Positions 9,803 through 27,677 of a DNA stretch of 32,000 nt are shown here, one piece after another (position 1 is the first letter of the stretch; every line of letters begins with the position of its first letter). Under the pieces are notes generated by a model that saw nothing but the letters and a program-made list of their open reading frames with translations, searched no databases and was not told the DNA's origin. The position numbers and the translations under genes were made by a program. Source of the stretch: Candidatus Arthromitus sp. SFB-rat-Yit (lineage in GTDB: Bacteria > Bacillota > Clostridia > Clostridiales > Clostridiaceae); assembly GCF_000283555.1 (NCBI RefSeq), contig NC_016012.1, positions 1,020,001 to 1,052,000 on the forward strand. Reading direction: 5' to 3'.

Positions 9803-9879
9803 AAACTTTCCTTTCAATAATTACTCAATACTTCATGATATTCAAGAAACAATTTATTTCCAAACGTTTTTTAATTGAT

Positions 9880-11486: not shown

Positions 11487-14144
11487 TTAAGAATTATATT
11501 TAAAATTATCAATACTTTTATTTACTTCATCAAGCATAGATTCATATTTTTTAAGTTTATCTTTCTCTTCCTCTATAACTTTTTCTGGGGCTTTACTCAC
11601 AAACCCTTCATTTGATAATTTTTTATTCAAACGCTCAATCTCTTTATCCAATTTATCTTTCTCCTTAGATAAACGTTCAATCTCCTTATTAATATCAACC
11701 AAATCTAATAAAGGAATATACATATTTGCCGATGATGAAACAACCGTTACTACTTTATTAGAACTCACAAGCTCCTCATTAATTTTTGAAACAATTTCTA
11801 TATCTTTTGATAAACCTAATTTTTCTATATAAATCAGAGATTCTTCATAAATATTTTTAAGATTACCTTTAGGCACAATGTAAAGTTTAGCTTTCCTTGA
11901 AGGAGGTATATTCATTTGTGACCTTAAATTTCTTATAGCTCTAATTGATTCTATAACATAATTCATGTTATCCTCAAATTCGCTAAAATTTAAATCTTGA
12001 TCAAATACTGGGAAATCAGAAGTAGTTATAAATTCTTTCTCAGAATCTTTTAAATTTGTATATAATTTCTCAGTTATGAATGGCATCACTGGATGCAATA
12101 ATTTGAGTGAATCTACCAAAACTCTCTTTAACACTCTTAATGTAACACCTTTTTGCTTATCACTGTCACCATACAAAACAGGTTTTGATAACTCTATATA
12201 CCAATCACAAAATTCCGTCCATATAAAATCATAAATTTTGGATAATCCAATTCCAAGTTCAAATTTTTCAAAATTATTTGTAACTTCAAAGATTAACGTA
12301 TTTAATTTATTTAAAATCCATTTATCAGCTAAACTATAATCATTACAATCTTTATATTTTTCAATCAATTCATCATCTAAATTCATCATAACGAACTTAG
12401 ATGCGTTCCATATCTTATTTGCAAAGTTAGATGCCGATTCAACTTTTTCTTCAATATATCTAATATCATTCCCCGGTGAAATTCCATTTATGAGCATAAA
12501 CCTCAACGCATCTGCTCCATATTTACTAATAACATCTATAGGATCGACACCATTATCAAGAGATTTTGACATTTTTCTTCCCTGAGAATCTCTTATAATC
12601 CCATGGATAAATACCTTTTTAAAAGGAACTTTGCTCATATTATGTAATCCTGAGAAAATCATTCTAGCAACCCAGAAAAATATAATATCATATCCTGTTA
12701 CTAAAGTTTCATTCGGGTAAAAATATTTAAGATCTTCCGTATCATTTGGCCATCCCAAGATCGAAAACGGCCATAACGCTGAACTAAACCAAGTATCTAA
12801 TACATCTTCATCTTGATAAATTTCTGTCGATGAACATTTATCACACTTCTTTAATTCGTCAGTAGAAACCATAACATTCTCACAATCTTTACAATAAAAA
12901 ACTGGAATTCTATGTCCCCACCAAAGCTGTCTAGAAATACACCAATCCTTAATATTTTCCATCCAATTAAAATAAATCTTTTCAAATCTATCTGGTATGA
13001 ACGAAATCTCTTTATTCTTAACACACTCTATTGCAGGCTTTGCTAGTTCTTCCATCTTAAGATACCATTGAGTAGAAATAATTGGTTCAATAATCGTACC
13101 ACATCTATCATGACAACTCACATTGTGATCATGATCCTTTATAGATAATAACAATCCTCTTTCTCGTAAATCTTCAACTATCCTTTCACGAGCATCATAT
13201 CTATAAAGCCCCTCATACTCAAAACCATTTTCATTTATACAAGCCTTATCATTCAACACTTTAATTTGTGGTAGATTATGTCTTAAACCAACTTCATAGT
13301 CATTTGGATCGTGTGCTGGAGTTACCTTAACAACTCCTGTACCAAATTCCATATCTACGTATGAATCTGCTATAACAGGTATTTTCCTACCAACAAGAGG
13401 TAGAATAACATTCATTCCTATATATTTTTTATATCTCTCGTCTTCTGGATGAACCATAACAGCAACGTCACCAAGAAGAGTTTCTGGTCTAGTTGTAGCA
13501 ATCTCTAAATATCCTTCCCCATTCTCTAACAGATATTTAATGTGCCAAAACTTGCCTTTCATTTCTTTATACTCAATTTCAGCATCTGAAAGAGCCGTAG
13601 TACATTTTGGACACCAGTTTGTAATTCTATTTCCTTGATATATGTAACCCTGATTATATAATTTTACAAAAACTTCTCTAACAGCTCTACTAAGATTATC
13701 ATCCATAGTAAATGCTTCTCTTGAAAAATCACACGATGTTCCAAGCATTTCAATTTGACTACGTATTTTTGATCTATATGTATCTGTCCATTCCCAAACT
13801 TTTTCAAGAAACTTTTCGCGTCCCAATTCATTCTTTTTTATTCCACTTTTTAAAAGCTCATTATCAACCCTTACTTCAGTTGCAATACTAGCATGATCTT
13901 CTCCCGGAATCCACAAAGCTTCAAAACCTTGCATTCTTTTAAAACGTATTAAGATATCTTGTAATGTCAAATCCAAAGCATGCCCTAAATGTAATTTCCC
14001 TGTTATATTTGGAGGAGGCATTGATATAACATAAGGTCTTTTATCTTCATTAACTCTAGCTCTAAATAGATCATTTTCCTGCCAGGCATTGAAAATGTCT
14101 TTCTCAAATTCTATAGGACTATACTTACCTAACTCTTCTCTCAT
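11487..14144 (-). CDS. valS: Valine--tRNA ligase
   Basis: 885 aa. It has the HIGH-type motif PPPNITGKLHLGHA, KMSKS (GRKMSKSLDNG), an editing domain and a C-terminal coiled coil. Confidence 0.97.
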   Translation of the reverse strand: MREELGKYSPIEFEKDIFNAWQENDLFRARVNEDKRPYVISMPPPNITGKLHLGHALDLTLQDILIRFKRMQGFEALWIPGEDHASIATEVRVDNELLKSGIKKNELGREKFLEKVWEWTDTYRSKIRSQIEMLGTSCDFSREAFTMDDNLSRAVREVFVKLYNQGYIYQGNRITNWCPKCTTALSDAEIEYKEMKGKFWHIKYLLENGEGYLEIATTRPETLLGDVAVMVHPEDERYKKYIGMNVILPLVGRKIPVIADSYVDMEFGTGVVKVTPAHDPNDYEVGLRHNLPQIKVLNDKACINENGFEYEGLYRYDARERIVEDLRERGLLLSIKDHDHNVSCHDRCGTIIEPIISTQWYLKMEELAKPAIECVKNKEISFIPDRFEKIYFNWMENIKDWCISRQLWWGHRIPVFYCKDCENVMVSTDELKKCDKCSSTEIYQDEDVLDTWFSSALWPFSILGWPNDTEDLKYFYPNETLVTGYDIIFFWVARMIFSGLHNMSKVPFKKVFIHGIIRDSQGRKMSKSLDNGVDPIDVISKYGADALRFMLINGISPGNDIRYIEEKVESASNFANKIWNASKFVMMNLDDELIEKYKDCNDYSLADKWILNKLNTLIFEVTNNFEKFELGIGLSKIYDFIWTEFCDWYIELSKPVLYGDSDKQKGVTLRVLKRVLVDSLKLLHPVMPFITEKLYTNLKDSEKEFITTSDFPVFDQDLNFSEFEDNMNYVIESIRAIRNLRSQMNIPPSRKAKLYIVPKGNLKNIYEESLIYIEKLGLSKDIEIVSKINEELVSSNKVVTVVSSSANMYIPLLDLVDINKEIERLSKEKDKLDKEIERLNKKLSNEGFVSKAPEKVIEEEKDKLKKYESMLDEVNKSIDNFKYNS

Positions 14145-14201
14145 TTAACCCTCCGTAAACTTTACAATTATCTACTAAATTTTTTCTTTTATATTATCAA
14201 T

Positions 14202-14229
14202 ATTTTATCACATCGTATACTATTGTCAA
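14202..14229 (-). promoter_or_regulatory. valS sigma-A promoter
   Basis: The - strand reads TTGACA (14229..14224), a 16-nt spacer ending in TGA, then TAAAAT (14207..14202), which makes an extended -10. The leader to the ATG is only about 50 nt. Confidence 0.6.
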
Positions 14230-14307
14230 AAATATTTATATATCAAACTGTATAATCAAGGTAATTTTTGGAATAATATTACTAAGTTTAACAAGAGGTG
14301 ATTAATT

Positions 14308-14670
14308 TTGGATTTTTACTTTAAAAAGGCGAATGATTATTACAATAAAAAAGATTATAAGAAGGCTCTTTCATTATATAAAAAATCTATCGAAAATCAA
14401 GTAGGTGAAGCATGTTCGCTTTACAATGCTGCTGTTTGTCACATAAAACTAAAGGAATATAATGAAGCAATCGATTTATTAAAACAAGCTCTTGAAATAA
14501 AACTTGATCATAAATATTTATTTAATTTAGCTTATTGCTACTCTCTGCTTGGTGATAATGCTAAAGCTCTTACATATTTTAATTGGTCATGGGCTATTAA
14601 TAACGATGACTACGAATGCAAGAAGGCAATTTCTATGATACTAGATTCATTTAATAAAACAAAAAAGTAA
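14308..14670 (+). CDS. Small TPR-repeat protein
   Basis: 120 aa with three TPR-like units (YYNKKDYKKALSLYKKSIE...). TTG start with AGAGGTG 7 nt upstream. Confidence 0.75.
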   Translation: MDFYFKKANDYYNKKDYKKALSLYKKSIENQVGEACSLYNAAVCHIKLKEYNEAIDLLKQALEIKLDHKYLFNLAYCYSLLGDNAKALTYFNWSWAINNDDYECKKAISMILDSFNKTKK

Positions 14671-14681
14671 CAAAATAAAAA

Positions 14682-14713
14682 GGGTAGTCTTAATCCCCCA
14701 ATTAAAACTACCC
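14682..14713 (-). terminator. Possible terminator of the transglutaminase-like gene
   Basis: GGGTAGT/ACTACCC forms a 7-bp stem with a long 18-nt loop. TTTTATTTTG follows on the - strand. Confidence 0.4.
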
Positions 14714-14727
14714 TCATTAATTATATT

Positions 14728-15858
14728 TTAAACTGAAAATTCCCATATGACTCTTTCCCTTATGTGGTCTTGTTCAAAATTGTTAATATCAAAATAATTA
14801 CCCGTTTCTCCGAATGTAGTATCAACTTTGATCCAAACATTAGATTCTTCAATATAAACTTCATTCCAAGCATGATTTATCCAACTATTTCCATCATATC
14901 CTTTCCCAACAACAATACGAGTTGGTAACTGTATACTTTCAGCAAGTACTGAATAAAGACTCGCATAATCAAAACAAATTCCCCGTTTGCTTTCAAATGC
15001 AGAAATAGCTCCAGATAAATTGCTAAAATCTTCATTTAATATATCATTTGATTTTTTTTCATCATATTCAAGCATATTTACAACATCATCATATAATTTT
15101 TTTGCTTTATCATATGATGTGCTTAATCCTTTCGTACTTTGTATAGCAAATTCTACAATTTCATCAGTACTCTTTGTAGCCTCATCTATTGTAACTCCAT
15201 TATACAAATACTTTACGTTATTCGTTTTAATATCTTCAAATGTTTCTAGAATAGGACTAAAAATATTAAGCATGATCTCATTCAAATCATATTTAAATGG
15301 AGCTATAATCCTACTAGATATGTTTTTATACAAATTAGATGAATTCATAATTTGATTAATCCTATTATTGTCTGTTAAAAACACAGAAAATGTATCAAGA
15401 GCGAAAATAAAAATCAATACAACAAGGATTGCCTTAGGAGCTTTTATAATTCCAAATATTATATTTTTAAATATATTTGGAAGTTGAAATAAAAACTTAT
15501 GAGACTTAATTACCATGTTTTTAAACAATAAAATATGAATACACCTACACATTAAATTGCAAATAATAAATGCTAAAACAAATAACACTATCTTCAATAT
15601 AAATCCAATCAATGTATTATCCACATGATTGATATTAAGAGATTTTAAAATTAAATAATATAACTCGTAAGCAATAAAATCATAAGATAAATAAACAAGA
15701 TAAAGTGAAATAATATTTATATAAAATCTTATATCATGAAAAATATATTGTAACTTATTATACTTAATAATCCCTCTAAATATAGTAAATGTAAACAATA
15801 CCACAATGAAGACAGAAATAATACCATTGTTCAAGATATCTATCAATAAATTAAACAA
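14728..15858 (-). CDS. Polytopic membrane protein with a C-terminal transglutaminase-like cysteine protease domain
   Basis: The N-terminal half is hydrophobic, with several TM segments. The C-terminal core GICFDYASLYSVLAESIQLPTRIVVG...NHAWNEVYI...VDTT carries a Cys-His-Asp triad pattern. TTG start after AAAGGGGA. Confidence 0.8.
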   Translation of the reverse strand: MFNLLIDILNNGIISVFIVVLFTFTIFRGIIKYNKLQYIFHDIRFYINIISLYLVYLSYDFIAYELYYLILKSLNINHVDNTLIGFILKIVLFVLAFIICNLMCRCIHILLFKNMVIKSHKFLFQLPNIFKNIIFGIIKAPKAILVVLIFIFALDTFSVFLTDNNRINQIMNSSNLYKNISSRIIAPFKYDLNEIMLNIFSPILETFEDIKTNNVKYLYNGVTIDEATKSTDEIVEFAIQSTKGLSTSYDKAKKLYDDVVNMLEYDEKKSNDILNEDFSNLSGAISAFESKRGICFDYASLYSVLAESIQLPTRIVVGKGYDGNSWINHAWNEVYIEESNVWIKVDTTFGETGNYFDINNFEQDHIRERVIWEFSV

Positions 15859-15902
15859 TCCGTAATCCCCTTTAAAATAGATATCTGATATAACAAAATT
15901 AT

Positions 15903-16367
15903 TTAATTTCTTGAATAAACCTGATCTAATATTTTTGTTGCTAAGTCGTAATCATATCCTTTTCCAATTAAGTGACAAAAAAGCTTGTGTCTAATTTTAA
16001 ATCCTTCAAACTTATCTTTAATAGCATCGTACTTCTTTTTACATATTTTAACGCCTATCTCTATCTTTTGTTCATCAGATATTTTTGAAAATTCCGCTTT
16101 TAAAAATTCACTATCTAATCCTTTCAGGATTAAATCAAAGAATATTTTCTTTTCCCCGTACTTTAACAAGTTTTTATTTATGTAATTTCTGGCATATCTG
16201 CAATCATTTATAAAGTTATACTCTAATAAATATTTGATCACATTATCTGCCACATTTGGATCAACACATTTATCCAAAAGATATTTTTTCATTTCCTTTT
16301 GCGTTTTATCATACCGATTCAATAACTTTAATGCTAAATTTTTCGCGATTATAAATTCTCTACTCAT
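15903..16367 (-). CDS. recX: RecA regulator RecX
   Basis: 154 aa. It shows the three-fold helical repeat pattern typical of RecX (ALKLLNRYDKTQKEMKKYLLDK...VIKYLLEYNFINDCRYARNYI). Confidence 0.7.
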   Translation of the reverse strand: MSREFIIAKNLALKLLNRYDKTQKEMKKYLLDKCVDPNVADNVIKYLLEYNFINDCRYARNYINKNLLKYGEKKIFFDLILKGLDSEFLKAEFSKISDEQKIEIGVKICKKKYDAIKDKFEGFKIRHKLFCHLIGKGYDYDLATKILDQVYSRN

Positions 16368-16369
16368 AA

Positions 16370-17611
16370 CTATTTCCCTTTGAGAATATGAACTGTTGGA
16401 TTATTAAGATGTTTTTTACAAACTTCCATTATTTGTTCTTTATTAACACTTTCTATTTTTTTTAAATCTTCTATATATGATTCGATATTTTTACCATAAA
16501 TAAGTTTTTCTATCAAATACAATCCAAGCTTCCTATTATCTTCAAAAATTGAATATATAGCTATTAATTGTAGTTTTTTCATAAGATTCAAGTTATAACA
16601 ATCAAAATTATAACTACAATTTTTTATTTCCAATATAGATTCGTCTATAATCTTCTTAGCTCTATCTACATTTTCTTTGCTAGTCGTACAAAAAATATAC
16701 ATACCTTGAAATTCATCGCTAATTTCTAATTGTGTATAAATATCATAAGCTAACCCTTCTTCATCTCTTACCTTCTTAAATAATATAGAATTCGAGCTTC
16801 CACCAAGTTTATACTCTGCTAATTTTAAAAGTATTTTCTCGCTTTGTTTTAAATCTTTAAACATAAACAAATATGTAATAGTACTTACTTCTAAATCGCT
16901 CTTTTCAGTAACTATAGTCTTTGGAATATTTACCTCTTCAATTAGTTCTCTATGTGAAATATGTTTTCTTTGCCAGGAGTTAAAATATTTTTTAAATAAA
17001 CTAATTATGTAATCTTCACTGTATGAACTAATAATAACTGCATACGCATTATTAGGAACATAATATTTATTGTGGAATTCTATCAAATCGCAACTAGTTA
17101 CATTTTTCAATAATTCTCTATTTCCTGCTACGTCATACTTTATATGAGATTTTTCAAAAGCTTGCTCATTTAGCTTTGAAAAACTAAATTCCTCATAGTT
17201 TGCATAGCACGAATCTAACTCTGAAATTATTATATCTCTCTCAATATCAAGCTCTTCACTATCAAATTTAGGAGCTATAACCATAGATGAAATTAGTTCT
17301 ATGCATTTCTCCAAATCATCATCCAATCCATTCACAGATAAAACGGTTGAACCATAATCAGTAAATGCATCATAATCTCCTCCTAAAAATTCAATAATGT
17401 TATTTACCTCGTAATCCTTAAATTTATTATTTGATCTGAATAACATATGTTCAACAAAGTGACTGAATCCTCTCTCGTTATCCGTTTCATATGCACTTCC
17501 AATTTTAATTCCAAGATTAAAATTAAAAAATTTACACTGCCTATTTAAAACGAGGATCTTAAATCCATTTTCTAAAATAAATTCTTTAAATTTAATTTTT
17601 AAACTTTCCAT
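16370..17611 (-). CDS. M16 (pitrilysin/insulinase) family zinc peptidase
   Basis: The inverted zinc motif HxxEH is present in GFSHFVEHMLF. Start taken at ATG 17611 after AGGAGA; the ORF track extends to 17641. Confidence 0.85.
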   Translation of the reverse strand: MESLKIKFKEFILENGFKILVLNRQCKFFNFNLGIKIGSAYETDNERGFSHFVEHMLFRSNNKFKDYEVNNIIEFLGGDYDAFTDYGSTVLSVNGLDDDLEKCIELISSMVIAPKFDSEELDIERDIIISELDSCYANYEEFSFSKLNEQAFEKSHIKYDVAGNRELLKNVTSCDLIEFHNKYYVPNNAYAVIISSYSEDYIISLFKKYFNSWQRKHISHRELIEEVNIPKTIVTEKSDLEVSTITYLFMFKDLKQSEKILLKLAEYKLGGSSNSILFKKVRDEEGLAYDIYTQLEISDEFQGMYIFCTTSKENVDRAKKIIDESILEIKNCSYNFDCYNLNLMKKLQLIAIYSIFEDNRKLGLYLIEKLIYGKNIESYIEDLKKIESVNKEQIMEVCKKHLNNPTVHILKGK

Positions 17612-17722
17612 ACTTTCTCCTAACATTAGATAATAATACAATGTTTTGTAAAATTTTTCCAGTTTATGGGAAATAAATTTATAACTTTTTAATATATAAA
17701 TTTTTATTTAACTTTTATGATA

Positions 17723-17758
17723 CAAAAAAACTATGATTTAAACTTAATTAAATCATAG
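17723..17758 (-). terminator. Rho-independent terminator of 17766..18851
   Basis: An 11-bp stem CTATGATTTAA/TTAAATCATAG has a 6-nt loop, followed by T7 on the - strand. Confidence 0.7.
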
Positions 17759-17765
17759 CCATATT

Positions 17766-18851
17766 TTAAATTTTCAATCCTAGTTCATTCATCAATCTTA
17801 CATATTCTTCACAAATTAACATCTGTTTTAAAACATCTTGGCGTGATGTCCTTTTAACTTCACTAACCCAATATTTCTTACCATCCTCATCTGGGTCACG
17901 ATTCAGTATAACTCTATAAACTCTGTTTATAAACTCACCATTAGACATTAATTTATTTTGAAATTCAATGCCCTCAACGATATTTACAATCAATGTACTT
18001 GGTGACAATGTTTTATTGATTAATGCTTGTACATTATTTTTCAACTCCGTAGTAGTTGGATTTCTTTTCAGTAAACTACTATAAATGTTCATTACAAATT
18101 CTTCTATAATATCCTTGGTACTAAAATTATATAGAAATGTTTTATTAATTTTTTTAATGGAAACACCATCCAATTCATTTTGAAATAACAAACTTAAGTT
18201 AAATTTTAAAGGCTGATCAGACGGAAATCCATCAAGATATATGTACACGTATTGTTTAAGTTCTTCAGATACCACAACATATTTTATTTCAAAAGTCGTA
18301 CTAGAATTGGTCACTAACTCTGGATACACAAGTACAGATTGTACACTTTTAAGCATATCCCAAGGGTCATCTATTTCAACCGCTAAAACTATTTGATTTT
18401 GGTTATAATATAGGAGTCTTGGCTCTCCAATAACACTCGAAGATCTAAAATTTTCATTTTTGGCACTTAACGTTGCAATTTCTTTTATACTCTCTTGTGA
18501 CCTATTTACAACGAAATTCACACCTAATTTTACATTATCCATATCATAAGATTTTGTATTTTGGTTAATAATTATAATGTATTTATTTTCAGAAATCTGA
18601 TATGTACTAACAGGCGTAATCTTATTATCAACTTCGATGAAGAACTCTTTAATAACTCCATCTACTTTTTTCTCAACATCCACACTAAATATAAATCTAT
18701 TTTTACCAGATAACTCTTCTAGAAACTTAGTCTTAACAATAACATCCTTGCTATCAATTGCATTTGCTTTTGTTCCACAAACTAGAGCAAATAGTACTAC
18801 GAACATAGACATAAATAAAGTAAATAATTTATGTTTACATTTAAACAACAA
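17766..18851 (-). CDS. Secreted protein with a C-terminal tandem DUF4214 pair
   Basis: Signal peptide ...FVVLFALVCGTKANA/IDSKD. The C-terminus is FVMNIYSSLLKRNPTTTE...RVYRVILNRDPDEDGKKYWVSEV...EEYVRLMNELGLKI, homologous to the C-terminus of the 1471-aa protein. TTG start after a G6 RBS. Confidence 0.75.
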   Translation of the reverse strand: MLFKCKHKLFTLFMSMFVVLFALVCGTKANAIDSKDVIVKTKFLEELSGKNRFIFSVDVEKKVDGVIKEFFIEVDNKITPVSTYQISENKYIIIINQNTKSYDMDNVKLGVNFVVNRSQESIKEIATLSAKNENFRSSSVIGEPRLLYYNQNQIVLAVEIDDPWDMLKSVQSVLVYPELVTNSSTTFEIKYVVVSEELKQYVYIYLDGFPSDQPLKFNLSLLFQNELDGVSIKKINKTFLYNFSTKDIIEEFVMNIYSSLLKRNPTTTELKNNVQALINKTLSPSTLIVNIVEGIEFQNKLMSNGEFINRVYRVILNRDPDEDGKKYWVSEVKRTSRQDVLKQMLICEEYVRLMNELGLKI

Positions 18852-18980
18852 ATTCCCCCCATTTACTTATTGATTTATTACAATTATATAACATTTGTGA
18901 CAATTTTTCTATAAATAATTTACAAATCAATTATTAATTATAAACCTTATATATACTTTAATTAATTTATTAAAATTGTA

Positions 18981-19009
18981 TTGAAATTTAAGAATGCTTC
19001 CGATATAAT
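18981..19009 (+). promoter_or_regulatory. Consensus sigma-A promoter of the rubrerythrin gene
   Basis: TTGAAA (18981..18986), an exactly 17-nt spacer, then TATAAT (19004..19009). Confidence 0.7.
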
Positions 19010-19022
19010 AATAATTGTTAAT

Positions 19023-19037
19023 TGATAATTATTAACT
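19023..19037 (+). promoter_or_regulatory. Fur-family (PerR/Fur-like) 7-1-7 operator candidate
   Basis: TGATAAT-T-ATTAACT lies just downstream of the -10. It matches 12 of 14 positions of TGATAATnATTATCA and 10 of 14 of the PerR box TTATAATnATTATAA. AT-rich background lowers the significance. Confidence 0.4.
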
Positions 19038-19077
19038 TATTTTTGAATAATTATTTTATATTTTGGAGGTTTTTGTA

Positions 19078-19620
19078 ATGAAAAAATTTGTTTGTACAAT
19101 ATGTGGATACATAGCTGAGGGGTCTGCTCCAGAGGTTTGTCCTATCTGTAAAGCACCAGCTGATAAATTTAATGAGCAAACTGGGGATATGACTTGGGCA
19201 GATGACCATGTAATTGGTGTTGCTAAAGATGTTGATCCTAGAATTATAGAAGGATTAAGAATGAATTTTGAAGCTGAGTGTACAGAAGTTGGAATGTATC
19301 TAGCAATGTCCAGACAAGCTGATAGAGAAGGTTTCCCAGAAGTTGCTGAAGCTTATAAAAGAATAGCTATAGAAGAAGCTGAGCATGCTTCTAAGTTCGC
19401 TGAGCTTTTAGGAGAAGTTGTTGACAACTCTACTAAAATTAACTTAGAGAAAAGAGTTGCTGCTGAGTATGGAGCTTGTCAAGGTAAAAAAGATTTAGCT
19501 ACATTAGCTAAACAATTAAACTTAGATGCTATTCATGACACAGTTCATGAAATGTGTAAAGATGAAGCTAGACACGGAAGAGCATTCAAAGGTCTTCTTG
19601 AGAGATACTTCAAAGCTTAA
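19078..19620 (+). CDS. rbr: Reverse rubrerythrin (N-terminal rubredoxin-like domain plus C-terminal diiron four-helix bundle)
   Basis: [27 protein letters not shown] carries CxxC...CxxC. Diiron ligand motifs follow ([28 protein letters not shown]). ATG 19078 lies after GGAGG 19065..19069. Confidence 0.92.
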
Positions 19621-19630
19621 TTTATATTTA

Positions 19631-19669
19631 GAACTCATTGATTTATTCAATGGGTTCTTTTGTTTTTTG
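19631..19669 (+). terminator. Rubrerythrin terminator
   Basis: GAACTCATTG-ATTTATT-CAATGGGTTC (one G-U pair in the stem) followed by TTTTGTTTTTTG. Confidence 0.75.
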
Positions 19670-19807
19670 TTCTCTCCCTTACTAATAATTTCTTTGTTAA
19701 ATTTTATGTGATATGTATATTAAGTTTTAAAATTTCATTTCGATATAAATTCATATATATCAACTTAAAATTGTTTGAAATTTATTACTCTTATGGGAGA
19801 AATCAAT

Positions 19808-20731
19808 ATGAAAAATTCGGAAAATAAAATTAAAAAGCAAAATGATTCGAGAGCATTTGCTTATAAGGCAATCTCACTTGCCTCTTTATCTACTCTAGCA
19901 CTAACCCTAGGATTAAATAACTTCAAAGAAGCCAAGGCTTTACTTACAAGAACAGGAACTACAAAATTCTTTGGATCAAATGGTTCTAAAGTTATGCTTC
20001 CGGGTAATATGGGATCTACTGGAAATACAGGATACGGTATTAAATCAGCAGTTACTGGTGGGGCTACAAAAGTTACTGGCGGAGCTCTTACAAGTGGTAG
20101 CAAAGGATTTGCAAACTTCAATAAAAAATGCCATAATCCATTTACTCAACCATACCTAGATTCTGTTAGACCATCTAACACTAGTAACGTAGGATCCTCT
20201 AATAAAAATACTTCTACAAAATCTCCTACTACTAGCGGAACTAATGGTACATCTAAACTTCCTACTACTGGATCAGGCTCAACACTTGGTTCAAATAAAA
20301 CTCCTTCTATAGGAAGTTCATCATCTAGTTCATCTTCATCTTTATCATCTTCATTAAGTAGAAATCCTTCTACAAGTAGTTCATCTTCTACTAGTTCATC
20401 TACATCATCTACGTTAAGTAGACCTTCTACAAGTGGATCAGTAGGTGTATATGAAAATCCTACAGATACTAACAACAATACTAATGGTAATAAAAATAAA
20501 CTTACTCCTAAACAAAAAGCTGGATTAGTTGCAGCAGGTAGTTTAGGTTTCTTAGGAGTACTTGCTGCTATTGGTGTAGGTGTTGGTGCTGCTCAAAATA
20601 GTAACAACAATAAGTCAGATTCAAACGGTACTAAAGGACCTGAGTCTGTAGCTACTCCAAAAACTCCAGAAAACACAAATAAAGTAGTTAACTCTGCCGC
20701 AGGTAACTATTACACAGATACAAAAGCGTAA
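19808..20731 (+). CDS. Ser-rich bitopic surface protein (signal peptide, Ser/Thr/Gly stalk, glycine-zipper TM near the C-terminus)
   Basis: ATG 19808 lies after GGGAGA. Signal peptide MKNSENKIKKQNDSRAFAYKAISLASLSTLALTLGLNNFKEAKA/LLTR. Poly-Ser tracts are present. The TM segment is GLVAAGSLGFLGVLAAIGVGVGAA, followed by a tail of about 50 aa. Confidence 0.75.
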   Translation: MKNSENKIKKQNDSRAFAYKAISLASLSTLALTLGLNNFKEAKALLTRTGTTKFFGSNGSKVMLPGNMGSTGNTGYGIKSAVTGGATKVTGGALTSGSKGFANFNKKCHNPFTQPYLDSVRPSNTSNVGSSNKNTSTKSPTTSGTNGTSKLPTTGSGSTLGSNKTPSIGSSSSSSSSSLSSSLSRNPSTSSSSSTSSSTSSTLSRPSTSGSVGVYENPTDTNNNTNGNKNKLTPKQKAGLVAAGSLGFLGVLAAIGVGVGAAQNSNNNKSDSNGTKGPESVATPKTPENTNKVVNSAAGNYYTDTKA

Positions 20732-20769
20732 TTACTTAACAATTCTCTTTTAAGGTAAGGGTGATTATT

Positions 20770-21093
20770 ATGAATAACTCAAACAAAAATAATACTAAAG
20801 ATATCACTAAGAAAGCCGTAGCTATTGGAACTGCACTCGGTGTAGTTGCAACCCTCGGAGCAAACCTAAATGTTAAAGAAGCTGGAGCTCGCACTCGTAA
20901 CACTAAACCAAATAAAGAATCTAGAGTAAACTCAGACAAGAAATTTTCGTACACTAAAAGACCTTGGACAAATGTAGATAAAGCAAATGCTCAAAGTTCA
21001 GAAGGATACGCAGCAAAAAATAAAGAAGAACGAAAAACTTCTAGTAATAGAAAAATAAGAGTTCCTGTTAGCGTTTCGACTGCAAGAAGATAG
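20770..21093 (+). CDS. Small basic exported protein, family member P1 (107 aa)
   Basis: MNNSNKNNTKDITKKAVAIGTALGVVATLGANLNVKEAGA/RTRN..., ending RVPVSVSTARR. It starts 38 nt after the upstream stop with no hairpin between, so it is probably co-transcribed. Confidence 0.7.
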   Translation: MNNSNKNNTKDITKKAVAIGTALGVVATLGANLNVKEAGARTRNTKPNKESRVNSDKKFSYTKRPWTNVDKANAQSSEGYAAKNKEERKTSSNRKIRVPVSVSTARR

Positions 21094-21102
21094 TTTATAT
21101 AA

Positions 21103-21139
21103 GGGGATACCTCTTCGAGGTTTCCCTATTTTCTTTTTT
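21103..21139 (+). terminator. Terminator after P1 (part of the 730-bp repeat unit)
   Basis: GGGGATACCTC-TTC-GAGGTTTCCCT (one T-T mismatch) followed by ATTTTCTTTTTT. Confidence 0.6.
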
Positions 21140-21268
21140 GTCAATTAATTTTAAATTTTTTTGCAACTTAAATATAAATTTTCCTTTTACCTCACCGAAA
21201 TATATGATTGTAAAGCTTATAACAAAAATTTTTATAGGATTGTTTTTCAAACAAGGAGGTATTTTATA

Positions 21269-21823
21269 ATGAGTAATTCATCTAAAAAAAATAATAAGAA
21301 AGATATCGCTAAAAAGGCTGTAGCCCTTGGTGCTGCTCTTGGTGTTGTTGCTGGTATCGGTGCTACTATGGGTGGTGGTGCTGAAGAAGCTCATGCTGCT
21401 AGAAGACCTTCCCAATCTTCTACTACAACTACTAACTCTGAACAAAGTACAACTACTACTAAAAGACCTTCTTCTAACGCTTCATCTGCAAATACTACAG
21501 GAACTTCTTCTAGAACTACAAGAAGTTCAGCTAACAGAAAAGTTTCTGCTAAGGTAGCTGATGCTAAAACTACTACAGATACTACTACAGAGGATACAAC
21601 AACTAGTACAAGTACTGGAAGAAGATCTACTACTTCAACTTCAAGTACTGGAAGAACTACAACTAACAAACAAGAAGATGCTAAGAAGTCTACTTCTCAC
21701 TCTTCTGTAAGTTCTAAAAGGTCTAAGTCTAAAGCTCAACAAAATAAAGATATGGCTTCAAGGTCTTCATCAACTGAGAAAACAAATAAAGTCGTTGTTA
21801 GCGTTTCAACTGCAAGAAAGTAG
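21269..21823 (+). CDS. Small basic Ser/Thr-rich exported protein, family member P2 (184 aa)
   Basis: ATG 21269 lies after AAGGAGG. MSNSSKKNNKKDIAKKAVALGAALGVVAGIGATMGGGAEEAHA/ARRP..., ending KVVVSVSTARK. The ORF-track extension back to 21161 has no RBS support. Confidence 0.8.
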   Translation: MSNSSKKNNKKDIAKKAVALGAALGVVAGIGATMGGGAEEAHAARRPSQSSTTTTNSEQSTTTTKRPSSNASSANTTGTSSRTTRSSANRKVSAKVADAKTTTDTTTEDTTTSTSTGRRSTTSTSSTGRTTTNKQEDAKKSTSHSSVSSKRSKSKAQQNKDMASRSSSTEKTNKVVVSVSTARK

Positions 21824-21832
21824 TTTATATAA

Positions 21833-21869
21833 GGGGATACCTCTTCGAGGTTTCCCTATTTTCTTTTTT
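21833..21869 (+). terminator. Terminator after P2 (copy of 21103..21139)
   Basis: The sequence is identical to 21103..21139 at offset 730. Confidence 0.6.
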
Positions 21870-21998
21870 GTCAATTAATTTTAAATTTTTTTGCAACTTA
21901 AATATAAATTTTCCTTTTACCTCACCGAAATATATGATTGTAAAGCTTATAACAAAAATTTTTATAGGATTGTTTTTCAAACAAGGAGGTATTTTATA

Positions 21999-22553
21999 AT
22001 GAGTAATTCATCTAAAAAAAATAATAAGAAAGATATCGCTAAAAAGGCTGTAGCCCTTGGTGCTGCTCTTGGTGTTGTTGCTGGTATCGGTGCTACTATG
22101 GGTGGTGGTGCTGAAGAAGCTCATGCTGCTAGAAGACCTTCCCAATCTTCTACTACAACTACTAACTCTGAACAAAGTACAACTACTACTAAAAGACCTT
22201 CTTCTAACGCTTCATCTGCAAATACTACAGGAACTTCTTCTAGAACTACAAGAAGTTCAGCTAACAGAAAGGTTTCTGCTAAGGTAGCTGATGCTAAAAC
22301 TACTACAGATACTACTACAGAAGAGGCAACAACTAGTACAAGTACTGGAAGAAGATCTACTACTTCAACTTCAAGTACTGGAAGAACTACAACTAACAAA
22401 CAAGAAGATGCTAAGAAGTCTACTTCTCACTCTTCTGTAAGTTCTAAAAGGTCTAAGTCTAAAGCTCAACAAAATAAAGATATGGCTTCAAGGTCTTCAT
22501 CAACTGAGAAAACAAATAAAGTCGTTGTTAGCGTTTCAACTGCAAGAAAATAA
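21999..22553 (+). CDS. Small basic Ser/Thr-rich exported protein, family member P3 (184 aa, duplicate of P2)
   Basis: It differs from P2 by two residues (TEDTT versus TEEAT) and has the same RBS and start context. Confidence 0.8.
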   Translation: MSNSSKKNNKKDIAKKAVALGAALGVVAGIGATMGGGAEEAHAARRPSQSSTTTTNSEQSTTTTKRPSSNASSANTTGTSSRTTRSSANRKVSAKVADAKTTTDTTTEEATTSTSTGRRSTTSTSSTGRTTTNKQEDAKKSTSHSSVSSKRSKSKAQQNKDMASRSSSTEKTNKVVVSVSTARK

Positions 22554-22559
22554 TTTAAT

Positions 22560-22581
22560 GGACACTGAAAAGTGTCCTTTT
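22560..22581 (+). terminator. Terminator after P3
   Basis: GGACACT-GAAA-AGTGTCC followed by TTTT. Confidence 0.65.
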
Positions 22582-22625
22582 AATATAATGTAACGGATTT
22601 TCTAAACATGGAGGTGTATTTAGAA

Positions 22626-23174
22626 GTGTCTAATAAAAAGAATAAAAAAGAAATAGCTAAAAAGGCTGTTGCCTTAGGTGCTGCTCTTGGAGTTGTCGCT
22701 GGTATAGGTGCTAGCATAGGGGGAGGAGCTGAAGAGGCTCATGCTGCTAGTAGAACATCCCAAACAAGATCAACCAGAAATACAAACACTTCAACTTCTA
22801 CATCAAAAAGACCAACATCAAATGCTAAGACAAGCGTATCAAAAGAAAATAGTGAAACAGAAAGCAAATCAAACCAAAACTCTAGAAATTATAGAAGCAA
22901 ATTAAGCTCAACTTCAAGGAGTGGTAGTGAAGACGAATCTTCAAATAGAAGAAGAAGTAAAGCTAAAGTAATATCAAATTCTAATGCTGAAGTTGAGAAT
23001 GAACAAAATGATGAAAATACTACATCAAAAAGACCTACCCCTAAATCATATAAAAGTATAGATGATAAGAAACAAAACTCAAAAGCAATAGTCGATGGGA
23101 GTAGATCATCTGCATCAACAGATGAAAGTTCATCAGGCAATAAAATTATAGTCAGAATATCAACAAAGAAATAA
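22626..23174 (+). CDS. Small basic exported protein, family member P4 (182 aa)
   Basis: A GTG start at 22626, 11 nt after GGAGG (22610..22614), gives (M)SNKKNKKEIAKKAVALGAALGVVAGIGASIGGGAEEAHA/ASRT, which is collinear with P1 to P3. The protein ends KIIVRISTKK. Confidence 0.7.
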   Translation: MSNKKNKKEIAKKAVALGAALGVVAGIGASIGGGAEEAHAASRTSQTRSTRNTNTSTSTSKRPTSNAKTSVSKENSETESKSNQNSRNYRSKLSSTSRSGSEDESSNRRRSKAKVISNSNAEVENEQNDENTTSKRPTPKSYKSIDDKKQNSKAIVDGSRSSASTDESSSGNKIIVRISTKK

Positions 23175-23182
23175 TGTTTAAA

Positions 23183-23220
23183 AACAGCATTCTTATTTAT
23201 AGGTTTGCTGTTTATTTTTA
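23183..23220 (+). terminator. Possible terminator after P4
   Basis: AACAGCA/TGCTGTT forms a 7-bp stem with a 16-nt loop, followed by TATTTTTAT. Confidence 0.45.
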
Positions 23221-23221
23221 T

Positions 23222-23256
23222 ACAAAAACTAAAATGGAGAAGCATTAAGCTTCTCC
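23222..23256 (-). terminator. Terminator of the 1471-aa protein gene
   Basis: GGAGAAGC/GCTTCTCC forms an 8-bp stem with a 5-nt loop, followed by ATTTTAGTTTTTG on the - strand. Confidence 0.7.
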
Positions 23257-23261
23257 AAAAA

Positions 23262-26200
23262 TTAATATTTTAATCCCATTCCAACTACCATTTTCATAAA
23301 TTCTTCTTCATTAATCATTCTATCCACCACGTGTTTCTTTGCATTAAATACATCTCCATTTGCATTTACAAGTGATTCATTGTTGTAAAAATCTATCCAG
23401 AATCTCAAACCTTCCTCATCCGGATCTCTATCAACAACTATAGAATAAAGTATTTCAATTAATTTATCTGTGGTATATTCAAGTTCTGAAAACTCTTTTT
23501 CCGCAAACAATAAATTAATCAAAAAATCTCTTGCTCCTATATCTTGATTATTTAATCTATTAATCCAATAATCATAACCAAGTTCGTCAGGGGCTCTTAA
23601 GAATGCTCTATCATACACATTGTATAAAAATGATTGCCTAGGATTCTCAGCTTCGAGGATTATATTTTGTATATTAAATATAATCTCCTTCCCTTCTTCT
23701 ACTACAATTCTAACCTCTATTGAAGGATATTCCTTACCTGGCACAAGTCCTTCAACTCCAATATTTCCATCTTCATTAATTCGAGCAGATATTCCATCTA
23801 TATCACATAATATATCCATCTCTTCTGTCAAACTTATATCTCCGAGATCAGGAATAGGAAATGCAAATTGATTACCTATTCCATCAAATCTTTCAATTTC
23901 AACAGGTTGCTCAAAAATTGTTTCATCTACAGGTTCATTCTTAATAATTTTCTCAACATAAAATTCTGTTTTGCCTGCACCTATTGTAAATTTCTCTGTA
24001 ACAGGTTCTATCATAACAATATAATCTGTATCATCAGTTAAAAATTGATCTAAATTAAAACTTGTAACTGAAATTATATCTGATTCAATAGTATGAATTT
24101 TTACATATTCATCCCCAATTACAATATCAGATTCTTTCTTTTCGTTTGAGGAATCCTCATTTTCTTCACCCTGTTCTGCCTTTTTAACTGTCTTCAAATA
24201 AATGTTTAACTTATCTCCTTCTAAAAACTTTGTATTCTCTCCATAAGACCACTTAAGATCAAACGTACTTTTAGTAAATTCATCTTCATATTTCTCGCCC
24301 TCTTCAACAGTTGGCTTAATTCCTCTATACTCAAGTTCAAAATCTACAAAATAAACTTCATTAAAATATCCATGTGGATTGTAAGAAATCAACAAATCAT
24401 AATCTTTTGTATTATCTGGAATCGTACACTCAAAATCAAATATTTCATTACGACTACCACTAAATATAGAATCACTATTATACTGTTTATGATCTGCCAA
24501 TTTATAGAAAGTATCAACATATATATCTAAATAATCCATAACCACCATATCATTACCAAAATCAGTTTTTATTCTAAGTGTGTTACCTTTCATGGAATCT
24601 ATCCTACAATTACTAAATTCTAATTTCTTTGTTCTAAACTGCATTGTTTTATCTTCAATATCATTTGCTTTCGTTTTATACGTAAGAAGAACATCATAAT
24701 CCATATCTGGCAATACAGGAAGTATATTAAATTTCGTTAAATCTTCTAACTTATTACTCTCACCATGGAATGAAATTATATTAGGTTCTTTAGGATACTT
24801 ATTATCACTTCGCTTCTTTACATATATTTCTACATAATCTCCATTTGCAAATATATAATCTTGTGGAGCTGCAATATTTAAAATTGCATAATACTCTGTC
24901 GTACTTTCTAATTTTATAGACGCATCTGCATGCGTTGTTTTAAATTCCACAGTCTTTTCAAATTTAACATTACTTATTGTGTAAACAAGCTTAGCTGTAT
25001 AATCCATATCCATATAAGTTACAGTCCCATCACCTTTAAACACTCCGCTAACCTCAGAACCAACTTTTGAAAATGAAGATCCTGCAGGATATCCATTAAC
25101 AATCTTTCTTTTAATATAAATCTCAACTTTATCTTTCTCATCAAAAGTCGTAGGTTCTCCAGATACTTTCCACTCAAAACTTACACTATTTGGTCTAATT
25201 GACGTTGTTTTAAATTCATCTATAGTAAATGAGCTAGTTTTCTGATTTTCAAATGTCTTTTCTAAAGTTTTTCTTTCTTCTGTATTTCTAACACTATATT
25301 TTTTATTAGAGCTTGAAGGTTCTTCTTCTGTTTCCTCTGTTTTTCCTGTTTCTTCAGATGAACCTCCACCTTCTACTGTTCCAGTATTTCCACTATCTTC
25401 TGAACCTTCTGTTCCAGTAGACACATCTTCACTATCTTCTGTTTCTTCTTCATCACCTTCTTCCTCTTCACTGCTGCTATCATCAGATCCTTCACCATTT
25501 TCTTGATTGTCATCACCATTTGAACCATTTCCGTCAGATAAATCTCCATTGCTTCCCGAATCTTCTCCACCTGATTCTGTTCCTCCTCCAGTCGAACCAC
25601 CTCCAGTATCAGATCCGCTTCCAGATCCTCCACTACTACCGTCACCACTTCCAGATTCAATTATAGTATCTTTATCCTTTAGCTCATTTTTTGTCTTAAA
25701 CTCAATCTTAAAATCATATTCTTTCTCTGGAATTAGGTATCCAATGCTCACCTCTTTTATATTTTTCAAATCAATTTGGTTTTCTCCATTACTAGCATGG
25801 ATGTACTCTTTATCAGGCTCACTAGAAAAATTCTTTGCAGAACCATTTCTAAGTTTTTTAAATAATCTTATACTGTCACCTTCTTCAAACGTAAAATCTT
25901 CAGAATACTCAAGCTGAAATATAACTTCATTAACTTTTTTATCTTTAATAGAAACTTTTACCGTATTATTTTGATTGTTAGCTTCCCCAGTATTATTTGT
26001 TTCACCGTTTGAATATGATGTACCTTCAGATTGTGTTCTAACAAGTGCATTATTTTTTAAATCACCATAGCTTACATATTCTTTTCCATCTATATCATAA
26101 ACAAATTTAAAATCATATTCTTTGTTTATATCTCTCCCCAAATTTAAAATACAAGATCCCAATCTGCTTAAATCTCTATTTGCATAAAATTGCGAATCAT

Positions 26201-27677
26201 TTGGATATTCCGAATCATTCTTTTCTTTAATAAAAACTTTTAATGAATCATTACTCCCAAATCTAAAATTAGGCTCAGTTATTTCCCATCTAAGTTTAAC
26301 ATTTAAATTTCCATCACTATCAACTATAGGCTTGGCACTAATATTTTTAATTTCAAATGGAAGAGTTCTGAAAGTTTCATTTTTAATTATCAAAGATTCA
26401 TCATATGAATTTAAAATTTCATAATCAATACTATATTCTGTATTCGTTTTCAAATTTTTATAATCAACACTATTTCCCTGAATTTGATCTTTTAAATCTA
26501 TAGACCTAACTTTCTTTCTGGATAATTTATCATCCTTCTCCTCAATATAAATGTTTAACCTATCCCCGGATTTAAAATTTAAATTTTTAATGAAATCAAA
26601 TTGTATAAATAAATCTCTTAAATTTTTTATCTTAATATCCGTATTAAGATTATAACAATCATTAGTCTGACCTATCTCTTTTTCAATAACTCCATCTCCA
26701 AACTTATAAGCAAGCTTTATATCATAAATAGGGGATAATTCTTTTAATTCAATAACAGTTGAGTTAACCTTTTCATCATTTATTCTAATATCTGGATCAA
26801 CTGAATAATTTATATCACCCTTACCTTTGATATAAATATTAATTGAATCATTATTGATAAATTTAAAATTATTTGATGTGACATCCCATTTTAATTCAAG
26901 CTGATTATTATTAATCATTTTTGAACTCATATCCAAAATATCAAAATCTTTAGTCTTTATATGCTTATCAAATACTAAATTAACATTATCCTTTAAATTA
27001 ATGACATATCTGATATCATATGTGGTAGATGGATGTAACGAAATATTATTAAACTTAAAAATATTTCTGAGATTATTTATTTCCTTCTTTGATTTCTTTA
27101 TATGAAAGTCAAATCTATCTTCTTTACCTTCATCTCCAAATTTTTTACCATAAAGCTCAATTCCATTTATAAAAATCAGATTCTTTTTATCATATTTAAA
27201 CATAACATCACAAGTATTAATTCCAATATTATTAACGTCAAAACTATTGTTTAAATATTTAAACTTCGAAACTTGATTAATTGTTTTAAATGATGATCTA
27301 TCAATTAATGAAATTTTTATCTCATACCCAGTACCATCTTCTAACTTGTCATATATAAAAAATCGTTTATCAATTTCATTAATTTTAATTTCATTTCCAG
27401 AAATCAAATCTTTTAAACTAACTTTATTAATTTCATATCCAAATGCATCATCTACTACAATTTCAACAAAATTTCCACTCTCAACTATGTAAATAGGAAC
27501 ATCTATTTTATCCAGTGTATAACTTACTTTAATGCATAAATTCAAACACAATATTACAAAAAAAACAAACCTAATCATCATTTTAAATAAACTCTTCACA
27601 CAAACTAACCCCCTACCGAATTTATTAAAAGCATAGATATTAGTTTTAAAAATTTTTAATAATTTATTCATATTCAC
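23262..27677 (-). CDS. Giant exported repeat protein: about 8 Fn3-like repeats, an acidic G/S/D/E spacer and a C-terminal tandem DUF4214 pair
   Basis: The longest ORF is 1471 aa. The probable real start is GTG 27599, 9 nt after AGGGGG, giving MKSLFKMMIRFVFFVILCLNLCIKV. Repeats of about 100 aa are delimited by F-[KR]-T and carry [LF]x[WF]...F..GD.[IL].[IV]Y[IV]K and a tyrosine-corner-like YD[FIVL]x[LIF]xY. The C-terminus is YDRAFLRAPDELGYDYWINRL...VVDRDPDEEGLRFWIDF. Confidence 0.85.
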   Translation of the reverse strand: MNMNKLLKIFKTNIYAFNKFGRGLVCVKSLFKMMIRFVFFVILCLNLCIKVSYTLDKIDVPIYIVESGNFVEIVVDDAFGYEINKVSLKDLISGNEIKINEIDKRFFIYDKLEDGTGYEIKISLIDRSSFKTINQVSKFKYLNNSFDVNNIGINTCDVMFKYDKKNLIFINGIELYGKKFGDEGKEDRFDFHIKKSKKEINNLRNIFKFNNISLHPSTTYDIRYVINLKDNVNLVFDKHIKTKDFDILDMSSKMINNNQLELKWDVTSNNFKFINNDSINIYIKGKGDINYSVDPDIRINDEKVNSTVIELKELSPIYDIKLAYKFGDGVIEKEIGQTNDCYNLNTDIKIKNLRDLFIQFDFIKNLNFKSGDRLNIYIEEKDDKLSRKKVRSIDLKDQIQGNSVDYKNLKTNTEYSIDYEILNSYDESLIIKNETFRTLPFEIKNISAKPIVDSDGNLNVKLRWEITEPNFRFGSNDSLKVFIKEKNDSEYPNDSQFYANRDLSRLGSCILNLGRDINKEYDFKFVYDIDGKEYVSYGDLKNNALVRTQSEGTSYSNGETNNTGEANNQNNTVKVSIKDKKVNEVIFQLEYSEDFTFEEGDSIRLFKKLRNGSAKNFSSEPDKEYIHASNGENQIDLKNIKEVSIGYLIPEKEYDFKIEFKTKNELKDKDTIIESGSGDGSSGGSGSGSDTGGGSTGGGTESGGEDSGSNGDLSDGNGSNGDDNQENGEGSDDSSSEEEEGDEEETEDSEDVSTGTEGSEDSGNTGTVEGGGSSEETGKTEETEEEPSSSNKKYSVRNTEERKTLEKTFENQKTSSFTIDEFKTTSIRPNSVSFEWKVSGEPTTFDEKDKVEIYIKRKIVNGYPAGSSFSKVGSEVSGVFKGDGTVTYMDMDYTAKLVYTISNVKFEKTVEFKTTHADASIKLESTTEYYAILNIAAPQDYIFANGDYVEIYVKKRSDNKYPKEPNIISFHGESNKLEDLTKFNILPVLPDMDYDVLLTYKTKANDIEDKTMQFRTKKLEFSNCRIDSMKGNTLRIKTDFGNDMVVMDYLDIYVDTFYKLADHKQYNSDSIFSGSRNEIFDFECTIPDNTKDYDLLISYNPHGYFNEVYFVDFELEYRGIKPTVEEGEKYEDEFTKSTFDLKWSYGENTKFLEGDKLNIYLKTVKKAEQGEENEDSSNEKKESDIVIGDEYVKIHTIESDIISVTSFNLDQFLTDDTDYIVMIEPVTEKFTIGAGKTEFYVEKIIKNEPVDETIFEQPVEIERFDGIGNQFAFPIPDLGDISLTEEMDILCDIDGISARINEDGNIGVEGLVPGKEYPSIEVRIVVEEGKEIIFNIQNIILEAENPRQSFLYNVYDRAFLRAPDELGYDYWINRLNNQDIGARDFLINLLFAEKEFSELEYTTDKLIEILYSIVVDRDPDEEGLRFWIDFYNNESLVNANGDVFNAKKHVVDRMINEEEFMKMVVGMGLKY

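Follow-up and report, generated by a model that had tools for sequence, protein, structure and literature searches.

Tandem duplication of a complete gene unit with a chimeric joint in a paralog tail of Candidatus Arthromitus sp. SFB-rat-Yit

The chromosome of Candidatus Arthromitus sp. SFB-rat-Yit, a segmented filamentous bacterium (SFB), carries two near-identical, head-to-tail copies of one gene, P2, within an array of five genes that all lie on the + strand (P0, P1, P2a, P2b and P3). The array is part of a stretch of 32,000 nt (contig NC_016012.1, positions 1,020,001 to 1,052,000; GC content 29.8%), which was analyzed at its full length and is referred to as the window; unless another contig is named, coordinates are those of the window. 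The duplication is almost certainly real. It probably arose when one complete gene unit was doubled by an exchange between two copies of a short coding sequence, X, found at the ends of both P1 and P2, and it is either recent or recently homogenized.

A near-identical 730-nt tandem repeat

Comparison of the window with itself at an offset of 730 nt aligns positions 21066-21827 with 21796-22557, head-to-tail and with a period of 730 nt. Within the core (21091-21819 versus 21821-22549), 725 of 729 positions are identical, far beyond chance, while identity directly outside the repeat limits is at background level. Repeat-finding on the window recovers the same repeat families. A first-pass annotation, made from the DNA letters, had described the region as X-U-X-U-X with X at 21066, 21796 and 22526, and the offset comparison reproduces this structure exactly. 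X encodes V-S-V-S-T-A-R. Its left copy (X1, TGTTAGCGTTTCGACTGCAAGAAGATAGTTTATATAAGG) lies in the last eight codons of P1, the gene to which it had been assigned; the middle copy reads TGTTAGCGTTTCAACTGCAAGAAAGTAGTTTATATAAGG and the right-hand copy (X3) reads TGTTAGCGTTTCAACTGCAAGAAAATAATTTAATGGAC. Repeat copy 1 (21066-21795, +) comprises X1, a stop codon, a terminator, a putative promoter, a ribosome-binding site (RBS) and the body of P2a. Copy 2 (21796-22525, +) opens with the middle X, which forms the recombinant joint, and continues with the corresponding stop codon, terminator, putative promoter, RBS and the body of P2b. A partial third repeat (22526-22557, +) consists of X3, i.e., the tail of P2b, with TAA and TTTA, after which similarity stops.

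The mismatches at offset 730 fall into three sets: positions 21078, 21089 and 21090 between the left and the middle X, positions 21541, 21592, 21595 and 21596 inside the unit (n = 4), and positions 21820 and 21823 between the middle and the right X. All four internal differences are confined to a 56-nt stretch (21541-21596, +; partner 22271-22326), a clustering with P = 0.0014 by simulation. Those at 21541 (AAA in P2a, AAG in P2b) and 21592 (GAG/GAA) are synonymous, while those at 21595-21596 turn GAT ACA of P2a into GAG GCA of P2b. The final codon and stop differ as well (aag tag in P2a, aaa taa in P2b). The earlier reading had listed precisely these differences, including the change from Asp-Thr to Glu-Ala, and D109E and T110A are accordingly the only differences between the two proteins.

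Misassembly is a classic problem with near-identical tandem repeats, and SFB DNA preparations are known to hold several clones (PMC3158464). A single P2 unit might have been falsely expanded, or two strain variants stitched together in tandem; collapse or expansion of the assembly had also been raised in the first-pass annotation. An independent k=31 assembly of the reads of DRR001117, taken as the same strain, contradicts this. The exact P1 and rubrerythrin proteins occur together on one Logan contig of DRR001117, which is 99.988% identical to window positions 13077-21120 with one difference, a homopolymer gap at 18155. Logan contigs derive from a k=31 de Bruijn graph in which every 31-mer is distinct (PMC12424806). 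In such a graph built from the two-copy window, the 31-mer starting at 21091 is the first to have two predecessors, which predicts a contig end at 21120, and the DRR001117 contig ends at exactly this base. A single-copy genome would have no k=31 branch at 21120, and the contig end shows that the joint exists. The joint itself carries G21820, which is found in neither X1 nor X3, so that a chimeric joining of those two could not have yielded it. Moreover, all internal differences are in-frame substitutions, and several other genomes show or imply the same architecture. Exact-protein look-ups of complete P2a, P2b and P3 in the gene calls of the collection gave no match, which is explained by the array shattering at single-nucleotide polymorphism bubbles in k=31 assemblies. 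An assembly artefact is very unlikely.

The joint within X and P2 copy number in related lineages

At 21808 and 21819 the middle X matches the P2 type, and from 21823 on (TAG followed by TTTATATAAGGGG...) it follows the P1 type. Since its left part is P2-like and its right part P1-like, the crossover is confined to 21820-21822, between the last P2-type marker at 21819 and the first P1-type marker at 21823 (21819-21823, +; comparison of the X copies). The joint in the window reads ...AAGAAAGTAGTTTATATAAGG. At the position of G21820, two related contigs (L017 and L007; related contigs and loci are denoted by L numbers) carry A, and with L017 as outgroup G21820 is derived at the joint.

The parental arrangement predicted from this joint, P1-X-U-X-P3, exists, because contigs from three samples (L017, L018 and L019), reached via the P1 ortholog P0012, carry a single U flanked by X. 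Their gene order is rubrerythrin-P0-P1-P2-P3-DUF4214, with one P2 and with X at the end of both P1 and P2; over 30 nt, these two X copies differ at one position. Nucleotide identity between L017 and the window amounts to 96.5% for rubrerythrin, 92.3% for P1, 94.2% for the leader, 92.8% for P2 and 88.6% for P3. P2a and P2b differ from each other by 0.55%, compared with 7.2%, or about 13-fold more, between each of them and the P2 of L017. Each copy has its own derived changes: A21541 is probably derived in P2a, and the cluster 21592/21595/21596 is derived in P2b (GAGGATACA to GAAGAGGCA, L017 as outgroup). This cluster could represent three substitutions or a compensated +GAA/-ATA pair. The adjacency of the changes had earlier been taken as a hint of a small conversion tract, which is not supported: a search of the window for a donor of the patch 21592-21596/22322-22326 gave only chance 8-9-mers.

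The proposed course starts from an ancestral order P0-P1-P2-P3. P1 and P2 are diverged paralogs with a shared terminal X of 25-32 nt, which encodes ...VSVSTAR[R/K] and includes the stop. If the X at the P2 end on one DNA copy and the X at the P1 end on the other were misaligned and exchanged, by unequal crossing-over or by template switching during replication, P1-X-U-X-U-X-P3 would result. All open reading frames (ORFs) stayed intact and each P2 copy retained a terminator and a putative promoter of its own, so that the expected effect is a doubled P2 dose. Once present, the 730-nt repeats would be good substrates for further expansion, contraction and gene conversion, and their ready recombination would explain why P2 copy number varies among related lineages. 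The homology between the parental tails is 32 nt long with three mismatches, and none of its perfect blocks exceeds 12 nt. Replication slippage or template switching, independent of RecA, could account for the first event just as well as classical homologous crossing-over.

P2 copy number differs among the relatives. A single P2 is present in L017-19 and, accompanied by no P1, in L008-10. Candidatus Dwaynia gallinarum (L005) has two tandem P2 genes that are 90% identical at the amino acid level, no P1, and a junction in the terminators (GTGTCTTTT). Its two units (L005 9127-10560) are about 94% identical, with the differences lying mostly toward the signal peptide and in the first part of the mature protein; the junction falls in the terminator hairpins and outside the coding tail. 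In a metagenome-assembled genome (MAG) of an uncultured Candidatus Arthromitus, contig L004 runs on for 82 nt past the P2 stop, and the final 55 nt (10538-10592) repeat the upstream leader of P2, while contig L006 opens with a P2 tail and runs into P3. These ends indicate a collapsed repeat with its junction in the terminator and at least two P2 copies. In L007 (about 83% identical to the window), a P2 body is followed by X, TAG, a terminator, a leader and a P2 head, i.e., a P2-to-P2 joint of the X type (AAA TAG TTTTATATAAGGGG) and at least two copies. A metagenome scan recovered only this L007 contig. The contig itself is 1058 nt long and of low coverage, and at about 575-1058 it turns into GC-rich, unrelated sequence midway through the second P2 gene. 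A chimeric assembly is probable, with P0001 as its artefactual ORF. A copy number fixed at two in all related genomes, which the first-pass annotation had considered as an outcome that would speak against its proposal, is therefore not what is found: the number is one, two or at least two. In the protein tree, P2 and P3 form old clades and tandem P2 copies group within each genome. Taken together, the compared sequences indicate that P2 copy number is evolutionarily labile and that more than one type of junction exists. This variability, the single-copy relative and the chimeric middle X all support the original idea of a duplication through unequal recombination between paralog tails.

Other contig ends provide further hints. 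L020, a k=31 contig from SRR15970535, ends (at the base equivalent to L017 2106) exactly where an X-type joint between a P2 tail and the P1-downstream sequence is predicted to end it. Set against L017-19, which read through a single copy, this branch end hints at copy-number polymorphism in the sister lineage (L017-20); the ends of L021 and L022 do not lie at predicted branch points and are uninformative. L001, L002 and L011-16 all start within 208 nt upstream of P3. In short-read assemblies of many samples, contig starts or ends at the P2/P3 boundary (L001 1-62, L002 1-134, L006 1-124, L011-L016 and the end of L004 that loops back into its own P2 leader) suggest a repeat-induced break, and most SFB MAGs probably lack the P2 array or contain it in collapsed form. 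In L004, an orphan terminator hairpin (GCACCAACTCAAAGGTTGGTGC) is located at 9800-9870 upstream of the first P2, apart from the terminator of P0 itself, perhaps left over from a lost gene or from contraction of the array.

The main competing explanation is that the duplication predates the split from the L007 and L017 lineages, with gene conversion keeping the copies alike and with one copy removed in the single-copy relatives through recombination between the 730-nt repeats. The two-copy state could indeed be old, as tandem P2 genes or P2-to-P2 junctions occur in four of six lineages. Copies are also far more alike within genomes (99% in the window, 90% in Dwaynia) than between species (52-63%), the Dwaynia copies are mosaic with their differences in one segment, and the L007 joint is of the same kind as that of the window. 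In addition, the P1 and P2 tails of the window both have GCA where L017 has ACT and GCT, which suggests exchange between tails. Nonetheless, the closest relative is single-copy in three independent samples, and the junctions differ between lineages, the window and L007 having theirs in X, Dwaynia and the Arthromitus MAG in the terminator, which points to independent events; keeping an unstable tandem duplication over the long term would, moreover, require selection. We consider an old duplication kept uniform to be unlikely. Far less weight is given to a third possibility, namely that the repeat arose at other breakpoints, e.g., in terminators as in Dwaynia, and that its limits in X are the ends of later conversion tracts. 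The terminators after P1 and P2a are identical, the P1 tail and P2 share the derived GCA codon, and two other lineages do have terminator junctions, all of which would fit. Yet no additional step has to be assumed, because the single-copy relative already possesses both X-bearing tails and the same terminator and leader downstream of P1, and the middle X is a clean left-P2/right-P1 chimera.

A recent exchange from X to X remains the preferred reading. Apart from the spread of tandem P2 genes over lineages, three points weigh against it or its details. The k=31 read evidence demonstrates the joint and not the exact copy number; the homology is so short and imperfect that RecA-dependent unequal crossing-over is not an obvious pathway for the first event; and the assignment of the promoter of the unit to the sigma-28 class, discussed below, draws on consensus and conservation, with the sigma factor gene located outside the window. 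The further proposal that X serves as the DNA substrate for copy-number change holds insofar as the joint lies within X, but this role looks incidental rather than selected. Synonymous sites in X are no more conserved than in the rest of the gene (6-9 of 9 tail codons versus 66-79% elsewhere), and two lineages formed their junctions in the terminator instead.

Genes of the array and their protein family

The array locus starts with P0 (19808-20731, +), a Ser/Thr-rich protein of 307 amino acids (aa) by translation, with an N-terminal signal-like segment and a C-terminal membrane segment. P0 orthologs occur at the same position in L004, L005, L008 and L017. Only 38 nt separate P0 from P1 (20770-21093, +), a short paralog of 107 aa that contains the left X in its last eight codons; its ortholog P0012 is present in L017-22, and the exact protein is found on the DRR001117 contig. 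P2a (21269-21823, +; RBS AAGGAGG at 21253-21259) and P2b (21999-22553, +; RBS at 21983-21989) both encode 184 aa. P2a keeps the ancestral TEDTTT patch seen in L017, while D109E and T110A are derived in P2b. P3 (22626-23174, +) is an old paralog of 182 aa with a GTG start and is the most widely conserved member of the family.

Each unit carries an intrinsic terminator. After P1, a hairpin at 21103-21127 followed by a T-run (21103-21140, +) folds with -14.7 kcal/mol (z = -3.45), and an identical copy follows P2a at 21833-21870 (+), again at an offset of 730. The terminator downstream of P2b is a different one (22560-22586, +; hairpin at 22560-22577 by RNA folding) and overlaps a sigma-70-like promoter for P3. 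A search of 19600-23300 for structured RNA produced no Rfam match at E <= 1. The 175-nt spacer upstream of P2 consists of a terminator of about 47 nt and a further 128 nt that probably contain the promoter. The earlier description put the leader at about 130 nt; given the putative promoter, a length of about 60 nt is likelier for its transcribed part. To call the duplicated segment a whole transcription unit is fair, as each unit comprises a terminator, a putative promoter, an RBS and an ORF.

Promoters of the sigma-28 (FliA/SigD) late flagellar class follow the consensus TAAA-N15-GCCGATAT. A sigma-28/SigD-like element, TAAATTTT-N11-ACCGAAAT, is located upstream of P2a (21175-21201, +), judged by consensus and conservation, and the same element precedes P2b (21905-21931, +). 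When the P2 leaders of six lineages are aligned, TAAA(G/T)TTT-N11-nnCGAnAT is the sole conserved block besides the RBS and the start codon. Each unit contains the pattern once, giving two matches in the window where 0.04 would be expected. In the 134 kb of related loci (about 166 kb examined in total), the motif TAAAGTTT-N11-nnCGAnAT is confined to the upstream regions of P2-type genes: L004 9907-9933, L005 9228-9254 and 9905-9931, L008 447-473 and L017 2167-2193. A -35 TAAA and a (G)CCGATAT-like -10 element are present at the correct spacing of about 15 nt and are kept in all P2 leaders. The -10 element matches the class at just five to six of eight positions, and no flagellar gene is located nearby. 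We infer a promoter of the sigma-28/SigD type.

P1, P2 and P3 have in common a Lys-rich N-terminus, a hydrophobic segment rich in Gly and Ala (KKAVALGAALGVVAGIGA), an AXA site, a KRPSSNA motif and a C-terminal NK(V/I)3xVST(x)K tail. Inspection of the alignments reveals the features of a signal peptide, with a KK-rich n-region, AVALGAALGVVAGIGA and then A-H-A|A or A-Q-A|K. P2a has a pI of 10.96 and consists of Ser and Thr for 40%. Its AlphaFold2 model is of low confidence (predicted local distance difference test, pLDDT, of 50), with an N-terminal and one short further helix predicted. P0, P1, P2 and P3 have no match in Pfam or NCBIfam, the family profile has no match in the PDB, and P2 contains no LPXTG, SLH, LysM or other known wall-anchoring module. 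The profile matches 11 of 5.8 billion proteins in one search and 14 of 1.84 billion representatives in another. P2 is a presumably secreted, strongly basic, Ser/Thr-rich and probably disordered member of a tiny, SFB-restricted and unannotated family.

Compared with Dwaynia, P2 is 52% and P3 43% identical at the amino acid level, against 87% nucleotide identity for rubrerythrin. By this measure P2 and P3 evolve far faster than their neighbors, which is typical of exposed proteins. Across lineages (the window versus L005, L006 and L008), P2 and P3 orthologs are 31-63% identical, with rubrerythrin at 81-87% nucleotide identity.

Mucin-like, Ser/Thr-rich disordered surface proteins of Gram-positive bacteria resemble P2 in having a signal peptide, about 40% Ser and Thr and predicted disorder, and the P2 locus has putative surface proteins (DUF4214) as neighbors. 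P2 differs from them in having no known anchor, in its strong basicity (pI about 11), in its small mature size (141 aa) and in its conserved C-terminal NK(V/I)3xVST motif. Cryo-tomography has revealed hair-like disordered structures of 34 +/- 6 nm by 1.3 nm, of unknown composition, on the tips of early intracellular SFB offspring (PMC12780176); the flagellated offspring imaged were all of these early developmental stages (PMC12780176). Fully extended, mature P2 would measure about 35-51 nm by calculation. One speculative and quite improbable possibility is that the P1/P2/P3 family encodes the hair-like filaments of young flagellated SFB offspring, a thought prompted by the resemblance in length, disorder, Ser/Thr richness and flagellar-class promoter motif. 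If it were true, P2 copy-number change via the conserved tail would act as a dosage switch for a surface component involved in host attachment or exposed to immunity, one whose evolution is very fast between host-specific SFB lineages.

A number of smaller features were observed in these genes. P2 contains an imperfect 33-nt tandem repeat at 21595-21665 (and 22325-22395), encoding STSTGRRSTT/STSSTGRTTT. In L007 this internal repeat is missing as a 30-nt gap, and the patch that varies between P2a and P2b borders its left edge. P0 has an internal LPTTG (LPNTG in the P0 of Dwaynia, L005 7804-9129), with a membrane segment and a 45-residue tail some 85 residues further on. P0 was rejected as a canonical sortase substrate, as the LPTTG is internal and the C-terminal arrangement is not canonical. 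An 18-nt repeat of Ser codons is located at 20317-20411 in P0. A derivation of the P1/P2/P3 family from the 3' part of P0 was also considered and dismissed, since the similarity is lost under composition correction.

The array is flanked by chromosomal housekeeping and putative surface genes, including ValRS, RecX, an M16 peptidase, rubrerythrin, DUF4214 proteins, a solute-binding protein, LigA and PcrA, and syntenic loci are present in the uncultured Candidatus Arthromitus MAG and in Candidatus Dwaynia gallinarum. A role in anchoring to the SFB surface has been proposed for the DUF4214 domain (PMC12780176). Two ORFs of 632 aa (1118-3016, -) and 192 aa (3215-3793, -) have no Pfam match, and in a protein of 1471 aa (23262-27677, -) only C-terminal DUF4214 repeats are recognized; all three are probably SFB-specific surface proteins. 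The difference between the window and the DRR001117 contig at 18155 lies in a DUF4214 gene (17766-18851, -), with T7 in the window and T6 in the contig. T6 would split the 361-aa ORF into 108 and 247 aa, and reflects either a homopolymer read error or real heterogeneity.

Significance and comparison with known systems

The type of event is ordinary, as tandem duplication through short homology is textbook biology. Its value lies in how cleanly the case is resolved, as the single-copy parental order can be seen together with the chimeric joint and with read support at the level of the graph. The event also marks an SFB-specific, unannotated and fast-evolving array of putatively secreted proteins whose copy number differs between host-specific lineages, in bacteria that are important for the induction of Th17 and IgA responses. 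We found no description of this array in the literature. Because short-read assemblies break or collapse it, SFB MAGs probably under-report the array. The conserved sigma-28-like promoter, in turn, offers a testable link to the flagellated, host-attaching offspring stage.

In bacteria such as Salmonella and E. coli, tandem duplication and amplification occur at short direct repeats, followed by gain or loss through recombination between the copies. The P2 repeat is likewise head-to-tail and near-identical, has its joint inside a short homology that flanks the single-copy unit, and varies in number among close relatives. It differs from that type in that the homology is the coding tail of neighboring paralogs, the joint restores a full ORF, and the unit is exactly one gene from promoter to terminator. 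A second parallel is found in arrays under concerted or birth-and-death evolution, such as the tandem SFB flagellin pair FliC3/FliC4, which is 82.3% identical (PMC3158464). As in such arrays, the P2 genes are tandem SFB paralogs whose copies are closest within a genome and whose products are fast-evolving and exposed or presumably secreted. Unlike FliC3/FliC4, they belong to a family with no annotated domain, are 99.5% identical and vary in number between lineages.

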